Translations under genes and position numbers: made by a program | NCBI GenBank assembly: GCA_017557535.1 | Contig: JAFYYM010000034.1 | Coordinates: forward strand, 123,795-187,794 | Direction of reading: 5' to 3' | Source: Bacteroidales bacterium | GTDB lineage: Bacteria; Bacteroidota; Bacteroidia; Bacteroidales; UBA932 | Length of the DNA: 64,000 nt | Shown: one piece after another, positions 4,767 through 48,570 of the stretch | How the letters are laid out: every line of letters begins with the position of its first letter | Numbering within the stretch: position 1 is the first letter of the stretch | Notes under the pieces: generated by a model | The model's database searches: none | Seen by the model: only the letters and a program-made list of their open reading frames with translations | What the model was told of the DNA's origin: nothing

Positions 4767-5453
4767 ATGAACATACCTGACATTATCATAGCCATTGACG
4801 GCTACTCTTCAACCGGAAAAAGCACGCTCGCGAAACTGATAGCCGAGCAATATTCATTCCTCTATCTGGACTCCGGAGCAATGTACCGCGGAGTCACTCT
4901 CCACGCCCTGGAGAACGGGATCATAGACGAGTCCGGAACAATCGATGAGGCACGCCTCAAAACAGCTCTGGAGACCCTGGACCTCGATTTCCGGATTGAC
5001 GGGACATATATCGGAGACCGCCGTGTGGAACAAGAGATCCGCACCCTCGAGGTCTCCAGTCACGTCAGCCCGATCTCAGCCATTCCTTTTGTCAGAGTCT
5101 TTGTGGATGAGAAGCTCCACGCTTTCGGACAACGCAAAAGGGTTGTCATGGACGGCCGAGACATCGGTACCACGGTTTTTCCAAGCGCCGAGGTGAAGAT
5201 ATTCATGACTGCCACTCCTGAGGTCAGAGCCCAGAGACGTTTCGACGAGATGAAAGCGAAGGGGCAGGAGCCGGTCATGGAAGAGGTCATGAAGAACCTC
5301 CTTGAGAGGGATTACATCGATTCCCACAGGGAAGTCTCTCCCCTTTCCCGCGCGGCCGACGCTTATGTCCTGGACAACTCTGACATGACTCTCCATGAGG
5401 AGACCGTCTGGTTCCAAGGACTCTGCCAAGGCAAGTTCGGGATTCTGGAGTAA
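4767..5453 (+). CDS. cmk: Cytidylate kinase
   Basis: IAIDGYSSTGKST P-loop, LDSGAMYR, VMDGRDIGT, RDYIDSHREVSPL. Confidence 0.95.
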   Translation: MNIPDIIIAIDGYSSTGKSTLAKLIAEQYSFLYLDSGAMYRGVTLHALENGIIDESGTIDEARLKTALETLDLDFRIDGTYIGDRRVEQEIRTLEVSSHVSPISAIPFVRVFVDEKLHAFGQRKRVVMDGRDIGTTVFPSAEVKIFMTATPEVRAQRRFDEMKAKGQEPVMEEVMKNLLERDYIDSHREVSPLSRAADAYVLDNSDMTLHEETVWFQGLCQGKFGILE

Positions 5454-6478
5454 TGGCCCTCACTGTCGAGATAGACAAGCGTTCCGGTTTCTGTGGCGGG
5501 GTTATCCGCGCCATCAGCAAAGCCGAGGAGTTCCTGGACTCACACCCCGGGAAGAAGCTTTATTCCCTCGGGGCGATAGTCCACAATGAAGCCGAACTGG
5601 AAAGACTTGGCCGGAAGGGACTCGTGACCATCGGCCATGACGACATCGGCAATATTCAAGCCCCTGAGAATGAAACGGTTCTGATTAGGGCGCACGGCGA
5701 GCCGCCATCCACTTATAAGCTCACCCGAGAGGCTGGGATCAACCTCATAGATTGCACCTGCCCTGTCGTCCTGAAACTCCAGAAAGACATCCGCGACGTT
5801 TATTCACGCCTCAATGGCGGCGTGACCCGCTCCAGCGGCTCGACCGCCTCGCTTCGCTCGGCCCCACCGCTCGCTTCGCAAAGCGAAGCTCCGGTCCCCC
5901 CTCTTAACGTGCCGAGGGTGGCAATGGTCTCGCCATCTGGACAGGCCACGCCGCCGAGAGGGCAGATCATCATCTATGGGAAGATCGGTCATGCGGAGGT
6001 GCTGGGGCTGCTGGGGCAGGTAGGAGGTGACGCGGTGGTGATTGAGAATATGGACATGCTTCTCTCAGCGCTGGAGTCCGGGACTATCAGGACGGATGTC
6101 CCGCTGGAGATATTCTCACAGACAACAAAGAGTCCGACCGAATATTCCGAGATCTGCTCTGTCTTGTCCGAGAGGGCCAAAGCCGGACTGACCGTCCACA
6201 ACACGATTTGCAAGCAGGTCGCATCGAGGCATGAGGAACTCGCCGAGTTCGCCTCATCACACGACATAATCATTTTTGTGTCAGGAGTTTCCAGTTCCAA
6301 CGGAAAAGTCCTCTGCGACCTATGCCGCTCCAGGAATCCCAGAACCTATCACATCTCAGACCCGAAGGAGATAGATCCCTCCTGGTTCGGTCCAGATGAA
6401 AGCGTTGGTGTGTGTGGCGCCACCTCCACCCCCCACTGGCTTCTAGAGGAAGTCGCCCAGACAATATTATTTGCATGA
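5453..6478 (+). CDS. ispH: 4-hydroxy-3-methylbut-2-enyl diphosphate reductase with ~47-aa in-frame insertion
   Basis: GFCGGV, IVHN, RAHG, DCTCPVV, GHAEV, FSQTT, NTIC, SSNG, GATSTP motifs. Confidence 0.95.
   Translation: MALTVEIDKRSGFCGGVIRAISKAEEFLDSHPGKKLYSLGAIVHNEAELERLGRKGLVTIGHDDIGNIQAPENETVLIRAHGEPPSTYKLTREAGINLIDCTCPVVLKLQKDIRDVYSRLNGGVTRSSGSTASLRSAPPLASQSEAPVPPLNVPRVAMVSPSGQATPPRGQIIIYGKIGHAEVLGLLGQVGGDAVVIENMDMLLSALESGTIRTDVPLEIFSQTTKSPTEYSEICSVLSERAKAGLTVHNTICKQVASRHEELAEFASSHDIIIFVSGVSSSNGKVLCDLCRSRNPRTYHISDPKEIDPSWFGPDESVGVCGATSTPHWLLEEVAQTILFA
5816..5955. repeat. 140-nt palindromic element with terminal inverted repeats, in-frame in ispH
   Basis: Left GGCGGCGTGACCCGCTCCAG (5816-5835) pairs imperfectly with right CTGGACAGGCCACGCCGCC (5937-5955); internal perfect hairpin GCTTCGC-AAA-GCGAAGC (5873-5889). 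Confidence 0.8.
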
Positions 6479-43188: not shown

Positions 43189-45285
43189 ATGATTCCACGG
43201 GAGACGGTACAGAAGATTCTGGACACCGCGCAAGTCGAGGAAGTGGTGGCCGATTTCGTCTCGCTTAAGAAGCGCGGGGCGGAATGGTGGGGCTGTTGTC
43301 CTTTCCACAACGAGAAGACCCCCTCCTTCCATGTCGTTCCCGCGAGAGGAATATACTACTGCTTCGGTTGCCACAAAGGAGGATCCGCCGTGGGTTTCGT
43401 GATGGACCATGAGCACATGTCTTATCCGGATGCCCTGAGATATCTGGCAAAGAAATATAATATCGAGGTGGTTGAGGAAGAGCAGAGCGCCGAGGAACTA
43501 GCCGCCCGACAAAGAAACGAGAGCCTCTACCTCGTCTCGGAATTCGCCGAGGAATTCTTCAAGGAACAGCTCTCGAAAGGAGAGGGCAAAGCCGTGGGAC
43601 TCAATTATTTCCACAGCAGAGGTCTGGAGGATGCCACCATTGGGAAATATGGCCTGGGATGGGCTCCGTCCGACCGACACGCCTTCACAGACGCCGCCAA
43701 GGCTAAAGGATATAAGGACGAATATCTCCTTGAGACAGGACTCTGCGCCAAATACGACGACAAGCCCGACATCCATGACAGGTTTGTCGAAAGGGTCACC
43801 TTCCCTATCCATTCGATTAGCGGCAGGATCATCGGTTTCGGAGCAAGGACACTTAAATCAAAAGAGGAAGGGAAACCCTACGCCAAATACGTCAACTCCA
43901 AGGAGAGCGCCATCTATGTCAAGAATCAATCATTGTACGGAATATGGTTCGCTAAGGGCGAGATGGCCAAGAAAGACAAGTGTTTCCTTGTCGAAGGATA
44001 CCTGGATGTTCTCTCCATGCATCAGCTGGGAATCACCAACGTGGTGGCTTCCAGCGGTACCGCATTGACTGACGGGCAGATACGCCTTATAGGACGTTTC
44101 ACGAAGAACGTCACCATCATGTATGACGGTGACGAGGCCGGCGTCAAGGCCGCCCTTAGAGGTATCGACATGTTCCTACGCCAAGGAATGAACGTCAAGG
44201 TCGTGTTGATCCCGGACGGGGATGACCCTGACTCATACGCCCGGAAACACACTTTGGAGGAAGTGGAGGACTTCATCTCTGGCAACGAGCAGGATTTCGT
44301 GGACTTCCAGAGTTCCCTACTGCTAAGGGACACGGAGAATGATCCTCTCCGGCGCGCTGACGCGATAAATGAGATAGCCGACACTGTGGCCCAGATTTCG
44401 GACGGAGTCAAAAGGGAAACCTATATCGACTTCCTCAGTCGCAAGTTCGACATCCGGAGGACCGTCCTGGAGGATAGGGTCGGCTTGACAAGGACGAAAC
44501 TCTTAACCCAGACCGGACAGCAGTCCGAGCCTGACCGAGTCCATCCTCGCCCCACTGCGGCTGAGTACGGCCTAGGCTCGACTGCTGCTCCGGCTATCAC
44601 GCAAGATTCGGAGCGAAGCGACGCAGGGAGTCTGAGGGGAACGCCCCTCAGTCCCCCTAGGGGGCAAGGGGGGTTGACGTTTTCTTCCAGTGACGACCTA
44701 TCGTCACTGGAAGAGAACCCGATAATGGCAAAGGCTGAGCGGGATCTGCTGAGCTTCATCCTGACCTATGGCACCACCAGACTTGAGTTCCAAAGTGACT
44801 CTGAATTCTACACCGAGGATGAGGAAGATGTCCAGACAGTGTTCGAGTTCATTGGCCAAGCCATAGAGGCAGACGGTACCGTATTCGCCAACAAGGCTTA
44901 CCAGGACACCTATGACGCCTATTCGGAAGAGTATTATAATGGCTATTCCCAGAATGATATCGTGAGACATCTCATGGACGGCGAGGATAGGACGGTGGCA
45001 TTCGTCGCGGCTCAACTCTCGACAGAAGAGAGATACGACTTGTCCATCAAGAATCTCCGCGACGCCATGATGTCAAAGGGGTCATGGCTGACGAAATTCG
45101 TCCCCAAGTCAATCCTCGTATTCCAAGTCTGCCGCCTCGAGGACAAAGAGCACTCCCTTAAAGAAGAGCTTAGAGAAGCACAGGACATCGGGGACCAGAA
45201 CCGTGAGATGGAGATATTGAAGAGCCTGGTGAATCTGCGCAAAGCCATCAAAACCGTCAAAGTTCGCCTCGGACGGGAAAAATAG
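43189..45285 (+). CDS. dnaG: DNA primase with palindromic insertion in the linker
   Basis: CPFHNEKTPSF, CFGC, FGARTL, KYVNS, VEGYLDV, YDGDEAG, DPD. Confidence 0.96.
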   Translation: MIPRETVQKILDTAQVEEVVADFVSLKKRGAEWWGCCPFHNEKTPSFHVVPARGIYYCFGCHKGGSAVGFVMDHEHMSYPDALRYLAKKYNIEVVEEEQSAEELAARQRNESLYLVSEFAEEFFKEQLSKGEGKAVGLNYFHSRGLEDATIGKYGLGWAPSDRHAFTDAAKAKGYKDEYLLETGLCAKYDDKPDIHDRFVERVTFPIHSISGRIIGFGARTLKSKEEGKPYAKYVNSKESAIYVKNQSLYGIWFAKGEMAKKDKCFLVEGYLDVLSMHQLGITNVVASSGTALTDGQIRLIGRFTKNVTIMYDGDEAGVKAALRGIDMFLRQGMNVKVVLIPDGDDPDSYARKHTLEEVEDFISGNEQDFVDFQSSLLLRDTENDPLRRADAINEIADTVAQISDGVKRETYIDFLSRKFDIRRTVLEDRVGLTRTKLLTQTGQQSEPDRVHPRPTAAEYGLGSTAAPAITQDSERSDAGSLRGTPLSPPRGQGGLTFSSSDDLSSLEENPIMAKAERDLLSFILTYGTTRLEFQSDSEFYTEDEEDVQTVFEFIGQAIEADGTVFANKAYQDTYDAYSEEYYNGYSQNDIVRHLMDGEDRTVAFVAAQLSTEERYDLSIKNLRDAMMSKGSWLTKFVPKSILVFQVCRLEDKEHSLKEELREAQDIGDQNREMEILKSLVNLRKAIKTVKVRLGREK
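44512..44594. repeat. 83-nt hairpin element, copy 1 (in dnaG)
   Basis: 71/83 nt identical, ungapped, to 47938-48020; 18-bp outer stem with two single-base bulges. Confidence 0.9.
44611..44718. repeat. Cluster of hairpins in dnaG following the 83-nt element
   Basis: GAGCGAAGCGA (44611-44621); CTGAGGGG-AACG-CCCCTCAG (44632-44651); CCCCCTAGGGGG (44653-44664); perfect 14-bp stem 44683-44714. Confidence 0.75.
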
Positions 45286-46290: not shown

Positions 46291-48570
46291 ATGGAAAAGA
46301 ATTTCAAGAGAACGCTTGTGACCTGCGCGTTGCCGTACGCCAACGGCCCCGTGCATATCGGCCATCTGGCCGGAGTCTATGTGCCTGCCGACATATTCGT
46401 GAGATACAAGAGGATGAAGGGCGAGGATGTCCTTTTCATCTGCGGCTCAGACGAGCATGGTGTGCCGATCACAATCAAGGCAAGGGCTAATGGTGTGACT
46501 CCGCAGGATATCGTGGACAAGTACCACGGCATCATAAAGGACTCGTTCACAAGGCTGGGGATCAATTTCGACATTTATTCCCGCACCACCTCCAAGGTGC
46601 ATCACAAGAACGCCTCTGAGTTCTTCCGCGAGCTCTACGACAAGGGCAAGTTCATCACCAAGGAGAGCGAGCAGTACTATGACCCTGAGGCCAAGACTTT
46701 CCTGGCCGACAGGTACATTGTCGGCACTTGCCCCAAGTGCGGCAATCCGAACGCCTATGGCGACCAGTGCGAGAAGTGCGGAAGCACCCTTAGTCCCGAG
46801 GAACTCCTCAACCCGAAGTCCAAACTCAGCGGCGCCGAGCCGATAAAGAAGAAGACCACACACTGGTATCTTCCTCTGGACAAGTACGAGCCTTGGCTCC
46901 GTGAATGGATTCTCGATAACCACAAGGAGTGGAGGTCCAATGTCTACGGCCAGTGCAAGTCATGGCTGGATGGCGGACTTCAGCCTAGAGCCGTCAGCCG
47001 CGACCTGGACTGGGGTGTCCCAGTGCCTGTGGAGGGTGCGGAAGGCAAGGTACTCTATGTATGGTTTGACGCCCCGATTGGCTATATATCCAACACTCAG
47101 GAGCTTCTGCCACAGAGTTGGGAGAAATGGTGGAAGGATGATGACACCCGTCTCATCCATTTCATCGGCAAGGACAATATCGTCTTCCATTGCATCGTCT
47201 TCCCTTCGATGCTGAAGGCCCGCGAAAACTACATCCTTCCGGACAATGTGCCTTCCAATGAGTTCCTCAACCTCGAGAGCGACAAGATCTCGACCTCCCG
47301 CAACTGGGCTGTCTGGCTCAATGAATATGTCGACGACTTCCCCGGCCAGGAGGACACCCTTCGTTACGTTCTCTGCGCCAATGCTCCCGAGACCAAGGAT
47401 AATGACTTCACCTGGAAGGATTTCCAGCAGAGGAACAACAGCGAGCTGGTGGCCATCCTGGGCAATTTCGTCAACAGGGCAGTTGTCCTGACACAGAAAT
47501 ATTTCGGAGGCAAGGTGCCGGAGAACCTGAAGCCGGAAGCTATTGATGCTGAGACACTCTCGCAACTTCCCGAGCTTCGCCGAAGCCTCGAGGCTAATCT
47601 TGAAGGCTTCCATTTCAGGGAGGCTCTGAAAGACGCCATGAACATAGCCCGCATTGGTAACAAATACATCTCTGACACCGAACCTTGGAAGGTCGCCAAG
47701 TCCGACATGGACAGGACCGCCTCGATCCTCTACACCTCGCTGCAGATATGCGCCAATCTCGCTATCGCATTTGAGCCGTTCACTCCGTTCTCGGCAGAGA
47801 AACTGAGAGGGATACTGAAGGTTGGATTGGACGCTGGTTTCGACCATCGCTCCGGCGAGGGTGAGCCAACGGTGAACTTCTACAAGCCAGGCGAATGCCG
47901 CGCACTCCATACGGCCGGACAGCCGCTAACTGAAACGGCCGGACAGCCGTTCGAGCACGGCCGCGTCCATCCTCGCTACGCTGCGGCTGAGTACGGCCTA
48001 AGCTCGACGGCTGCTCCGGCCAACTCGGCTGAATGTCCGGTGCTGACATGGGACGACTTGGGACGTGGGGATATCCTGCCGGTCGGACATGAGCTCGGTG
48101 AGGCTGTCCTGCTGTTCAGCAAGATCGAGGATAATGTCATCGATGCCCAGATCGACAAATTGAACGCCACCAAGCAAGCCAATGAGGCTGCCGCCAAGGC
48201 CGCTGAGGCGGAGGAAGCCGCCCATAAGGTCGAGCCTCAGAAGCCTGAGGTCACCTTTGAGGACTTCGGAGCTATGGATATCCGTACCGCCACCGTGCTA
48301 GAGGCTGAACGGGTTCCCAAAACTGACAAGCTCCTCAAACTCACGATCGACACCGGTATTGACCAAAGGACGATAGTCTCGGGCATAGCCGAGTACTATT
48401 CCCCGGAAGACATGCTCGGAAAGCAAATCTGCATCCTGGCTAACCTGAAGCCCAGGATGATCCGCGGCATCGAGTCCAAGGGAATGATCCTTATGGCAAA
48501 ACAGGGTGACGGGACAATGCGTCTCGTCACCCCGAGTGAAGCCGTGTCAAACGGCGCTGTTATCGGCTGA
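46291..48570 (+). CDS. metG: Methionyl-tRNA synthetase with ~70-aa insertion and C-terminal tRNA-binding domain
   Basis: [11 protein letters not shown] (HIGH), GSDEHG, CPKC..CEKC knuckle, YVWFDA, KISTS (KMSKS-like), GIESKGMIL. Confidence 0.96.
47938..48020. repeat. 83-nt hairpin element, copy 2 (in metG)
   Basis: GCCGGACAGCCGTTCGAGC ... GCTCGACGGCTGCTCCGGC arms; 71/83 identical to dnaG copy; same reading frame. Confidence 0.9.

Follow-up and report, generated by a model that had tools for sequence, protein, structure and literature searches.

The window (the whole 64,000-nucleotide stretch of a Bacteroidales contig that was analyzed) carries an ispH gene with a hairpin element inside its reading frame (Table 1). 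The gene product matched the Pfam LYTB domain (E = 1e-70) in two stretches interrupted by the insert, and its alignment with PDB 3DNF covered residues 6–110 and 171–337. A single ispH match was found in the genome. Besides the LYTB domain, the protein has the three Fe-S cysteines and the catalytic His/Glu/Thr/Ser-Asn residues of IspH. In the ortholog alignment, C14, C103 and C253 were invariant, as were H44, H180/E182, T224/T225 and S281/S282/N283, so that the Fe-S cysteine motifs are intact, as the initial annotation had read them.

Table 1 Features of ispH and its hairpin element, with positions in the window
Feature	Position	Strand	Remarks
ispH (4-hydroxy-3-methylbut-2-enyl diphosphate reductase), host gene of the element	5453–6478	+	341 aa
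Whole hairpin element, closing stem and core	5816–5955	+	In frame, residues 122–168
Outermost left arm, GGCGGCGTGACC	5816–5827	+	Inverted repeat I1
Left mid and inner stem	5828–5839	+	Part of common stem ..CGCTCCAGCGG CTCGACC
Conserved family core	5840–5928	+	nhmmer match C9:129634–129722, E 2e-24
Middle core hairpin, GCTTCGC-AAA-GCGAAGC	5873–5889	+	Variable module; read from sequence
3' core hairpin, CCCTC-TTAACGTGCC-GAGGG	5899–5918	+	Best-conserved family module; own-genome alignment
Right inner and mid stem (..ATGGTCTCGCCATCTGGACAG)	5929–5943	+	Pairs with 5828–5842 in the predicted fold
Outermost right arm, GGCCACGCCGCC	5944–5955	+	Inverted repeat I1
Tryptic peptide SAPPLASQSEAPVPPLNVPR			Within the predicted translation of the IspH insert

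Anatomy and predicted structure of the IspH insert

The initial annotation had counted 47 extra residues in IspH and put the native loop in Bacteroidota at about 10 residues, and both figures agree well with the orthologs. The 47-aa stretch GGVTRSS...QATPP corresponds to residues 122–168 (window 5816–5956), and the excess length of the gene amounts to about 135–147 bases at 5816–5955. In 40 related genomes, IspH was matched as two adjacent pieces (residues 1 to ~120 and ~166 to 339) with nothing between them. Since these orthologs lack the segment, it is not a conserved part of the protein. The loop of the relatives usually has 9 residues (e.g., YARLQGSGGQIVLFGK), and the insert therefore measures 45 aa relative to it, or 49 aa relative to the 5-residue loops in genomes P0005 and P0035. 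Orthologs in the genus finish the loop with ..GGC GGC CAG (A/S-G-G-Q). The GC content of the insert is 0.67–0.69, compared with 0.51 genome-wide.

The two outermost arms, 12 nt each, are 92% complementary, and pairing runs inward for about 30 nt per side if bulges are allowed. The predicted fold of the whole stretch has a free energy of −78.1 kcal/mol, compared with −63.4 ± 4.3 for dinucleotide shuffles (z −3.4), and none of 200 shuffles was as stable. The three small hairpins described previously were found in place, with GCGG/CCGC pairing 5835–5838 to 5844–5847, the second hairpin at 5873–5889, and CCCTC/GAGGG pairing 5899–5903 to 5914–5918. The reading of the element as bounded by terminal inverted repeats has to be revised in part: complementary arms are present, but, unlike the ends of a classical MITE, they are not conserved across the family, and what is conserved is the central core. 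In other copies the middle hairpin reads GCGTCGC..GCGACGC or CCATCGC..GCGATGG or is absent; the 3' core hairpin is nearly invariant among own-genome copies and also occurs in shorter variants on contigs C52 and C83. The left mid and inner stem is common to the copies on contigs C104 and C42 and to copy L235 of genome G249, and the C104 and C42 copies also have right stems homologous to the right inner and mid stem of the ispH element; both stem parts were inherited with the element, the mid-stem coming from the donor copy. The first bases of the left outer arm, GGCGGC (Gly-Gly), look like native loop codons. By analogy with other pairs of occupied and empty sites, the end of the right arm, GCCGCC, may be an inverted copy of this native GGCGGC.

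The AlphaFold2 (AF2) model of IspH had pLDDT below 50 at residues 123–167 only, gave TM scores of 0.77–0.81 against IspH structures (normalized to target length), and superposed on IspH crystal structures with an rmsd of 2.6 Å over the remainder outside these residues. Structure modeling, which had been proposed as a check, thus keeps the IspH fold, with the insert alone disordered. Given this prediction, the intact catalytic residues in the sole ispH copy and the strong bias of genic copies towards two benign frames (see below), the element is probably transcribed, and its translation product probably forms a disordered loop of about 45 residues on the protein surface, linking helix 104–120 to strand 171–175. 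The helix after the Fe-S ligand Cys103 carries the insert at its distal end, so that IspH would still be functional. The fold can accommodate the insert at its surface position in the IspH model, and likewise in an E2 acyltransferase, where the copy falls within the linker that joins the lipoyl domain to the E3-binding domain.

The hairpin repeat family and its copies in genes

The IspH insert very probably belongs to a non-autonomous family of hairpin-forming repeats limited to one genus of uncultured Bacteroidales from the rumen and hindgut. The insert had 36 matches in its own genome, 20 of them long, and all 20 long copies were upheld by the family profile (E < 1e-15). These about 20 full copies bear out the initial annotation's view of the insert as a repeated hairpin-forming element, and its distinction from the element in dnaG/metG as a second family also holds, as the profile gave nothing at 44512–44600 or 47930–48020, even at E ≤ 1. 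In each copy, about 85 nt with two or three small hairpins form a conserved, asymmetric core, which is closed by a stem of 25–35 bp that differs between copies. Among 93 copies (21 from the own genome and 72 from further MAGs), hairpins had a median length of 130 nt and closing stems one of 28 bp, and the family is thus a dispersed palindromic repeat of about 100–150 bp with many copies per genome. No longer element bearing the core was found in the genome profile search, among variants or in copy neighborhoods, and the best match in a search of Rfam 15 (E 0.41, 13.8 bits against a cut-off of 80) indicated no known RNA family.

The flanks of the core are unlike between copies yet complementary inside each copy, and a genome search with the arms gave no matches beyond the arms themselves and the partner of each. 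The stem complementarity score was 23 with the own partner and 6 with swapped partners, and it exceeded the 99th percentile of swapped-partner scores in 80 of 82 copies. This comparison took the place of an RNAalifold covariation analysis, which recovered just two conserved small hairpins from a MAFFT alignment of 33 copies and gave no useful covariation count because the variable stems cannot be aligned. The closing stem consists of layers: its inner part is common to most copies, its mid part is shared at the subfamily level, and its outermost 3–17 nt are site-specific. For example, the mid-stem GGCG[AT][TG]ACC.GCTC[CT][GA]GCGGCTCGACC defines a subfamily in the ispH, C104, C42 and G249 copies. 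Mid-arms are likewise common to the two metH copies, and to the C104 and G249 L235 copies.

In the own genome, 16 copies of 20 are read in frame within ORFs of 314–1219 aa, including aroC, argD-like, ispE-like and rsmF-like genes and the E2 acyltransferase gene, and seven host genes were upheld by Pfam. When other MAGs were included, 33 of 82 copies were found in ORFs of at least 200 aa (hereafter genic copies), 14 forward and 19 reverse relative to transcription. The frame is kept in all 33, i.e., the element frequently occupies unrelated protein-coding genes with the ORF preserved. Furthermore, 31 genic copies use two of the five open frames, with the ..PPLNVPRVA.. frame in 12 of 14 forward copies and the ..ATLGTLRGG.. 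frame in 19 of 19 reverse copies. This use of two benign frames, together with the constant retention of frame, indicates that the encoded peptide is under selection. In a search for genes interrupted by out-of-frame copies, tandem genes were indistinguishable from split ones. Intergenic copies occur at gene 3' ends, often between convergent genes, and their stems, with A-runs and T-runs, look like bidirectional terminators.

Turnover across relatives and possible routes of movement

All genomes compared were MAGs. The core was detected in 79 of 401 sampled genomes of the genus, and a search of about 397 genomes representing 235 further genera of the order gave no match. An exact-motif scan matched Bacteroidales MAGs from rumen, omasum, reindeer and horse only, and the family was not found in viral contigs, plasmids or phages. 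The ispH core is 94–99% identical to copies in seven other species. Between the own genome and P0003, the cores are 97.8% identical, compared with 78–80% for the surrounding ispH and 54% at third codon positions; the core of P0006 is 81% identical to the own core, near the value of the host gene. High core identity across species could also mean gene conversion or sequence constraint rather than movement.

The IspH loop itself exists in many states. It is empty in P0005 and P0035, holds the element in the same orientation as the own copy in P0001–P0004, P0006, P0008, P0009 and P0033, in the opposite orientation in P0011, P0014, P0027 and P0060, and in a third frame in P0045 and P0083. Moreover, it is filled by another repeat family in P0007 and P0078, and retains remnants in P0010, P0012 and P0017. 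Other sites show the same mix of empty, occupied, flipped and truncated states. Judging from these alignments, the IspH loop is evidently an insertion hot spot, and the same permissive protein loops have been hit repeatedly and independently. Cores have been lost later by deletion, with stem remnants staying behind as new coding sequence. P0017, in which the arms alone are left, is read as such a deletion product and not as a landing pad because it retains the family's inner stem GGCTCGACC.

A few comparable pairs of occupied and empty sites indicate that the outermost stem is an inverted, not a direct, copy of the adjoining target flank. In ispE (G357 occupied, G249 empty), 17 nt of the left flank are repeated in inverted form to the right of the element, the junction lies at CCCC and the insert is 111 nt; this is the one site with a clean long inverted flank duplication. 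Shorter inverted flank copies of 4–8 nt were seen at C83:31.8k, C9:104k and argD; they overlap short palindromes already present in the target, and insertion into the center of a small palindrome fits them too. The GH3 site was left out since its alignments with G357 and G325 conflict. The copy in the ALDH-like gene on C104, whose right arm (V-S-P-G-E) had been taken as native (V-S-D-G-E), was withdrawn as a target-derived example because the same arm occurs in another G249 gene and is therefore donor-inherited. That arms are carried over from the flank of a parent copy was unsupported within the genome, where they match nothing else. Mid-arms are nonetheless common to copies in different genes and genomes.

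We tentatively favor, at somewhat less than an even chance, movement by insertion of a single-stranded hairpin followed by fold-back synthesis on the flank. The element would enter the target as, or via, a single-stranded hairpin, and the 3' end at the hairpin base would prime fold-back DNA synthesis with the adjoining flank as template, before synthesis rejoined the normal template at a microhomology of a few bases. The product would have the order flank, element, inverted flank copy and other flank, with no direct target duplication. A recopied element would carry part of its own stem along, which could account for a family-wide inner, a subfamily mid and a site-specific outer layer. No transposase, RAYT or reverse transcriptase was linked to any copy, and no reverse transcriptase adjoined one; the four RAYT-like genes present are flanked by their own, different REPs. 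Among ten high-copy and ten low-copy genomes, Y1_Tnp matches occurred in 10 and 6, and RVT_1 matches in 7 and 3, respectively, a link to copy number that is suggestive at most. It is possible, with a lower probability than the route itself, that fold-back insertion is a mechanism undescribed for prokaryotic repeats, with inverted target duplications of 4–17 nt, layered stem growth, and palindromes or remnants as landing pads. If so, it would explain at least five independent insertions in the same 5-residue IspH loop and the steady addition of disordered segments to essential enzymes across the genus.

Several findings would also be expected if no dedicated enzyme were involved and the copies were spread and homogenized by host recombination and replication errors such as gene conversion, template switching and quasi-palindrome correction. 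No transposase is linked to the copies, junctions lie at microhomologies, core deletions coincide with the stem base or are bounded by short direct repeats, and the stems of the own copy and P0003 differ at mirrored positions while the cores are 98% identical. We nevertheless regard this account as rather unlikely, since the same loop is filled in both orientations with unrelated outer stems and unrelated genes are occupied, and both observations require de novo insertion at fresh sites. Moreover, template switching should be rare if unaided, yet there are 20–40 copies per genome and several families. Slightly less probable still is that the element targets the centers of pre-existing palindromes (terminator hairpins, short inverted repeats or old remnants), so that the outer stem is the old target. 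The empty argD (G357) and C83:31.8k sites do hold 4–8 bp inverted repeats around the insertion point, outer stems of intergenic copies are terminator-like, and the same loops are re-hit, with P0011 resembling a new copy beside an old arm remnant. However, the empty ispE site of G249 lacks the 17-nt right arm of G357, native IspH loops of 5–9 residues are too small for a 25–35 bp stem, and the arms-only state of P0017 is a deletion product.

The remaining alternatives concern the element's role and its reality. The core could be a selected structured nucleic acid, such as an RNA element, a protein-binding DNA site or a terminator/attenuator, with the protein insert as a by-product, and its stable fold, the terminator-like intergenic copies at gene 3' ends and the far better conservation of the own/P0003 core than of host-gene synonymous sites would suit this. 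Nevertheless, we judge it improbable: orientation-independent presence (14 forward and 19 reverse genic copies) and free deletion of cores in relatives argue against such a role, as do the patchy presence (79/401 genomes), the merely 81% identity of the own and P0006 cores, close to the host gene, and the lack of any Rfam match better than E 0.41. It is very improbable that RNA excision or an intein-like process strips out the insert ahead of translation or protein maturation and leaves IspH unaltered. The hairpin resembles the intervening sequences that RNase III cuts out of rRNA, which is nothing direct, but the in-frame state of 33/33 genic copies, 31 of them in two benign frames of five open, and the persistence of stem remnants as coding sequence speak against removal, and the segment is without intein motifs and too short. 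To our knowledge, no pathway re-ligating mRNA in such a way exists in bacteria. Finally, the genome is a MAG of 139 contigs with 5% contamination, and a repeat could have been misjoined into ispH during assembly or binning; this can be practically dismissed, as the same in-frame insertion occurs in independent assemblies from other studies and hosts (P0001–P0004, G357 and others), with cmk and efp collinear with the ispH flanks in all of them.

Significance and relation to known repeats

No account of these elements in Bacteroidales was found in literature searches. Selfish DNA of the Rickettsia palindromic element (RPE) type in coding genes has hitherto been viewed largely as a Rickettsia curiosity, and the same phenomenon is now seen in an abundant genus of free-living gut and rumen Bacteroidales, with several families and with copies that number in the dozens in a genome. 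Individual sites are found naturally occupied, empty, flipped or decayed in many instances and so offer a comparative system. This variation raises the questions of how essential enzymes tolerate and then retain an inserted peptide, how hairpin repeats move with no visible transposase, and whether fold-back target copying is an insertion signature. In practice, the inserts lengthen and split domain matches in MAG annotation, and strong hairpins in coding DNA can disturb assembly.

Among known systems, MITEs in genes (ERIC, Correia/NEMIS, BOX and cyanobacterial MITEs; PMC10969869) are similarly small, non-autonomous and repeated, and sometimes form in-frame fusions. MITEs have conserved terminal inverted repeats matching a parent IS, together with direct target-site duplications (PMC10969869). 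In contrast, the termini here are copy-specific, rather than common to the copies and a parent IS, and pairs of occupied and empty sites give an inverted flank copy rather than a direct duplication. The element resembles the REP/REPIN-RAYT system (IS200-like Y1 HUH) in being hairpin-forming and non-autonomous, in its presumably single-stranded DNA form, in having no direct target duplication, and in the presence of distant RAYT-like genes in the own genome. However, REPINs have conserved arms and a variable loop, the reverse of the arrangement here, REPs are extragenic while 16 of the 20 own copies lie within genes, and the four RAYT-like genes are accompanied by unrelated REPs, not by the same repeats as expected of a cognate RAYT. 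Fold-back priming and quasi-palindrome template switching (PMC10622511, PMC7467729, PMC5941160) share the inverted duplication beside a hairpin, the microhomology junctions and the correction of imperfect palindromes towards perfection. They are described as mutational processes at breaks or in quasi-palindromes rather than as a mark left when copies of a dispersed repeat family insert.

The closest likeness is with RPEs, to which the element is compared by description. As summarized in PMC10969869, RPEs (Ogata et al. 2000, 2002) are dispersed palindromic repeats of about 100–150 bp in several families; they lie very often in frame within unrelated housekeeping genes with a peptide that fits the host fold, have no known transposase, and are each limited to one genus, all as here. 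A conserved center with a copy-specific closing stem derived partly from the target flank, as in the present element, was not found in this account of RPEs. Unlike RPEs, which reside in reduced intracellular Alphaproteobacteria, the present element is GC-rich in a genome of 51% GC and belongs to free-living gut Bacteroidales with genomes of 2–3 Mb. Because it is found in one Bacteroidales genus only, it is not assigned to any of RPE-1 to RPE-10 and is RPE-like by its working. By functional class, we therefore regard it as an RPE-like selfish element.

The insert in IspH

The ispH gene is single-copy in its genome, and the Pfam LYTB match of its product (1e-70) is split over two stretches. Alignment with Aquifex IspH (PDB 3DNF) covered residues 6-110 and 171-337, with about 11 crystal residues standing against 60 here. 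The initial annotation had proposed an insert encoded by a palindromic DNA element, and the orthologs agreed: IspH of 40 related genomes aligned as two adjoining pieces (residues 1 to ~120 and ~166 to 339) without the segment. Since the loop usual for the genus has 9 residues (e.g., YARLQGSGGQIVLFGK or YERVKPAGGQIVIFGK), the insert amounts to 45 residues. The Fe-S cysteines, described as intact, were invariant together with the catalytic residues among 22 close homologs. At the DNA level, the expected inverted repeat was present at the insert ends, and the three small hairpins lay where they had been placed. The 160 nt around the insert folded into a single long hairpin with bulges (-78.1 kcal/mol; shuffles, -63.4 +/- 4.3; 0 of 200 as stable), with a GC content of 0.67-0.69 versus 0.51 genome-wide.

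AlphaFold2, run with a 22-sequence alignment, returned a confident IspH fold (TM 0.77-0.81, normalised by target length, and rmsd of ~2.6 A to E. coli, Aquifex, and Plasmodium IspH), in which the insert was the low-confidence part. Only residues 123-167 had pLDDT <50; they lacked secondary structure and lay between helix 104-120, which begins directly after the Fe-S ligand Cys103, and strand 171-175, which runs to the GHAEV motif. From this topology, the insert would hang at the distal end of the helix-strand pair. Bacteroidota make isoprenoids through the MEP pathway and this is the sole ispH in the genome, so the enzyme must work despite the insert. We infer that the element is transcribed, translated, and mobile at present.

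Separately, IspH may have another insertion site near residue 243, where ispH loci of two congeneric species carried ~51 (L054, genome G018) and ~21 (L052, genome G015) extra bases between pieces matching residues 166-243 and 241-338. The C-terminal tail of homolog P0007 (NVILSEARKSNRNVILSEAKNLSDN) looked as if the ORF had taken in a tandem REP-type repeat, now translated.

Copies, core, and distribution of the repeat family

A search with 150 nt of the insert gave 36 matches in the same genome, 20 of them long, and a profile built from the copies recovered the same 20 at E<1e-15. The profile did not match either dnaG/metG element in the window (44512-44600 and 47930-48020), and the ispH family is therefore distinct from that family, as had been suspected. 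Aligned copies shared a core. Flanks were unrelated between copies, while within every copy the left flank was the reverse complement of the right; searched against the genome, arms matched only themselves and their own partner. In a combined set of 93 copies, hairpins had a median length of 130 nt and closing stems one of 28 bp. Median stem complementarity was 23 with the own partner versus 6 after swapping partners between copies, and the own-partner score exceeded the 99th percentile of swapped-partner scores in 80 of 82 copies.

All genomes compared were MAGs. Of 401 congeneric genomes sampled, 79 contained the core (E<=1e-6), with best identities of 94-99% in seven species; it was not found in ~397 genomes from 235 other genera of the order, nor in viral contigs, plasmids, or phages. 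When 185,579 species genomes were scanned for the exact motif, >115 places matched; the MAGs concerned were all of uncultured Bacteroidales, sampled from cattle, goat, yak, buffalo, roe deer, reindeer, and horse. Rfam contained nothing similar to the ispH element.

Coordinates of the ispH insert, related repeats, and candidate mobility genes. C numbers are contigs of the genome under study, G numbers congeneric genomes, L numbers loci fetched from them, and P numbers IspH homologs from related genomes.
Feature	Location	Remarks
ispH ORF	window 5453-6478 (+)	341 aa
Insert GGVTRSS...QATPP	window 5816-5956	47 residues (122-168)
Outer inverted repeat	window 5816-5827 / 5944-5955	12 nt, 92% complementary
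Common core	window 5840-5928	~85 nt
Two copies in metH-like ORF	C97:46776-46862 and 47835-47921	1219 aa; ~1 kb apart
aroC insertion	C58:132820-133019	nested/double, ~55-60 residues
ftsK-like ORF, two families	C127:~100.3k	same linker
Third family	window 44610-44665; C42:~9.8k; IspH of P0007/P0078; L073	window site in dnaG; L073 is argD of G087
Fourth family	L074, L072; L087, L088	argD of G275, G325; MatE gene of G249, G165
RAYT-like (Y1 HUH) genes	C9:216449-216613; C95:90791-91000; C24:991-1140; C56:60325-60531	~300 aa
Retron-like reverse transcriptase	C15:43282-43971	NCBIfam retron St85/Ec67/TIR models, all below cut-offs
Second reverse transcriptase	C83:38677-39303	unclassified; 4 kb from an intergenic copy

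Host genes, reading frames, and turnover

Sixteen of the 20 copies lay, in both orientations, inside ORFs of 314-1219 aa. Pfam confirmed as hosts IspH, a class-III aminotransferase (argD-like), a 2-oxoacid dehydrogenase E2 (copy in the linker from lipoyl to E3-binding domain), an RsmB/F methyltransferase, a GHMP kinase (ispE-like), chorismate synthase, a periplasmic binding protein, and a MatE transporter; sequence resemblance added putative MetH (two copies), FtsK, Fmt fusion, GH3 glycosidase, aldehyde dehydrogenase fusion, CitG-like, and 4Fe-4S proteins. The four intergenic copies and shorter variants sat at gene 3' ends, mostly of convergent pairs. Genic copies made up 33 of 82 well-folded copies. 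Although the core is open in five of its six frames, 31 of these 33 were confined to two: 12 of 14 forward copies read ..STASLRSAPPLAS..PPLNVPRVA.. and all 19 reverse copies ..TTATLGTLRGGTGAERSEASGG.. Both peptides are rich in Ala/Ser/Pro/Gly/Thr, and the avoided frames in Arg/His/Cys/Trp. This bias, in copies that are not all independent, suggests that the peptide is under selection and is therefore translated.

Among close homologs 70-93% identical outside the loop, the IspH loop was empty (P0005, P0035), occupied in the same orientation (P0001-4, 6, 8, 9, 33), in the opposite one (P0011, P0060; P0014, P0027), or in a third frame (P0045, P0083), held a different palindromic family (P0007, P0078), or retained remnants (P0010, P0012, P0017). 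In the DNA, P0017 had lost the core exactly at the inner-stem base (GGCTCGAC/C...G/GTCGAGCC) with both arms kept, and P0012 everything between two direct CGACC repeats. Because their outer stems are unrelated, the elements of P0006 and P0014 represent separate insertions. The same mix (empty, occupied, flipped, truncated, or other family) was found in eight close relatives at the argD-like, CitG-like, ALDH-like, MatE, metH, ispE-like, fmt, and aroC sites. The IspH loop is an insertion hot spot. Compared with P0003, the core was 97.8% identical, surrounding ispH 78-80%, and third codon positions at conserved residues 54%; the core is not universally constrained, because identity to that of P0006 was only 81%. 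The site has apparently been re-occupied or converted by a currently successful subfamily.

The two metH copies had identical mid-stems and different outer stems. The first was occupied in all six relatives examined, while the second was empty in G275, G165, and G087 and a remnant in G357 and G100; given the shared stems and the empty or remnant sites, the second seems to have been copied recently from the first, within the gene. The aroC loop held a reverse copy and a partial forward copy (..SSGGSTASLCEGG..); it was empty in G087 and G165 and held another element in G357.

The permissive loops used by the ispH family also held a third palindromic family, again GC-rich (GGAGCGAAGCGAC..GGGAGTCTGAGGGGAACGCCCCTCAGTCCCCCTAGGGGG, read ..SERSDAGSLRGTPLSPPRG..), and a fourth (GGCGGCAATGCGCCTGGGCGGACATTTACCCGGATAGGGCGCGAAGCGCAGGGAGCCCAGGCGCC) occupied sites holding the ispH-family element in other species, standing in tandem with it in the G249 MatE gene. 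In the ftsK-like ORF, a dnaG/metG-family copy (..GTCCATTCTCGCTCCGCTGCGGCTGAGTACGGCCTAAGCC..) lay ~40 nt upstream of the ispH-family copy. Linkers evidently collect several families.

Origin of the stems and comparison with known elements

The best occupied/empty pair was ispE of G357 and G249. The empty G249 site joins ...GGGGGTACTACTGCCCC to GACGGAG..., and the occupied site reads ...GAGGGCACTACTGCCCC, a 94-nt element, GGGGCAGTAGTACCCCC, and GTCGGAG.... Seventeen left-flank bases are repeated inverted to the right of the element, joining at a CCCC microhomology, so that 111 nt were added without direct duplication; in G087 ispE the inverted arm alone is left, now coding (..GAVVPPS..). Three sites appear to be shorter versions of this pattern: an intergenic C83 site, empty in the genome under study (AGCGGCAT-TA-CGCT) and filled in G357 and a RUG MAG (AGCGGCAT, element, ATGCCGCT); C9:104k, with copied flank GGCGGTA and TACCGCC opposite; and argD, where both arms, in their outer 7-8 nt, agree with the G357 empty site (flanks 95% identical). 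Most of each stem was inherited rather than made at insertion. The two metH copies have ATTGGTGGTCCGGAC...GTCCGGACTCAC in common and differ only outside it, and the ispH, C104, C42, and G249 L235 copies share GGCG[AT][TG]ACC.GCTC[CT][GA]GCGGCTCGACC. In the ispH copy only the outermost GGCGGC/GCCGCC looks target-derived; natively, the loop encodes its Gly-Gly as GGC GGC.

A fold-back model, based on one long and several short junctions, would have the paired 3' end of a hairpin intermediate extended on the adjoining flank before it switched back to the template at microhomology; part of the parental stem would pass to each new copy. Were the element instead inserted into the centre of short palindromes already present, the short cases would be explained just as well, but not the ispE pair. 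As for what might move the element, the genome encodes four distant RAYT-like genes (REP-associated Y1 transposase-like; NCBIfam REP_Tyr_transpos matched at E 2e-8, under the model's cut-off). It also has three reverse transcriptases, including a retron-like one. No ispH-family copy in the genome adjoined any of these genes, and no link between the C15 and C83 reverse transcriptases and the element was found. The RAYT-like genes on C9, C95, and C24 had their own AT-richer repeated hairpins alongside (e.g., CCATGTGTGCCA..TGGCACACATGG), and these flanking REPs were unrelated to the ispH element.

Full-text literature searches turned up no account of such elements in Bacteroidales. Unlike MITEs, the ispH family lacks the defining conserved terminal repeats and direct target duplication, and unlike REPINs, the defining cognate RAYT and extragenic location. 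Its closest analogue, in terms of behaviour, is the Rickettsia palindromic elements, which are ~150 bp long, fall into ten families, and number 44 in R. conorii, where close to half have inserted into ORFs, in frame and at positions compatible with the protein fold (PMC10969869, review). The ispH family works alike; however, it is GC-rich, its host is a free-living gut Bacteroidales genus, and it has a conserved centre and a layered, apparently partly target-derived stem rather than conserved ends.
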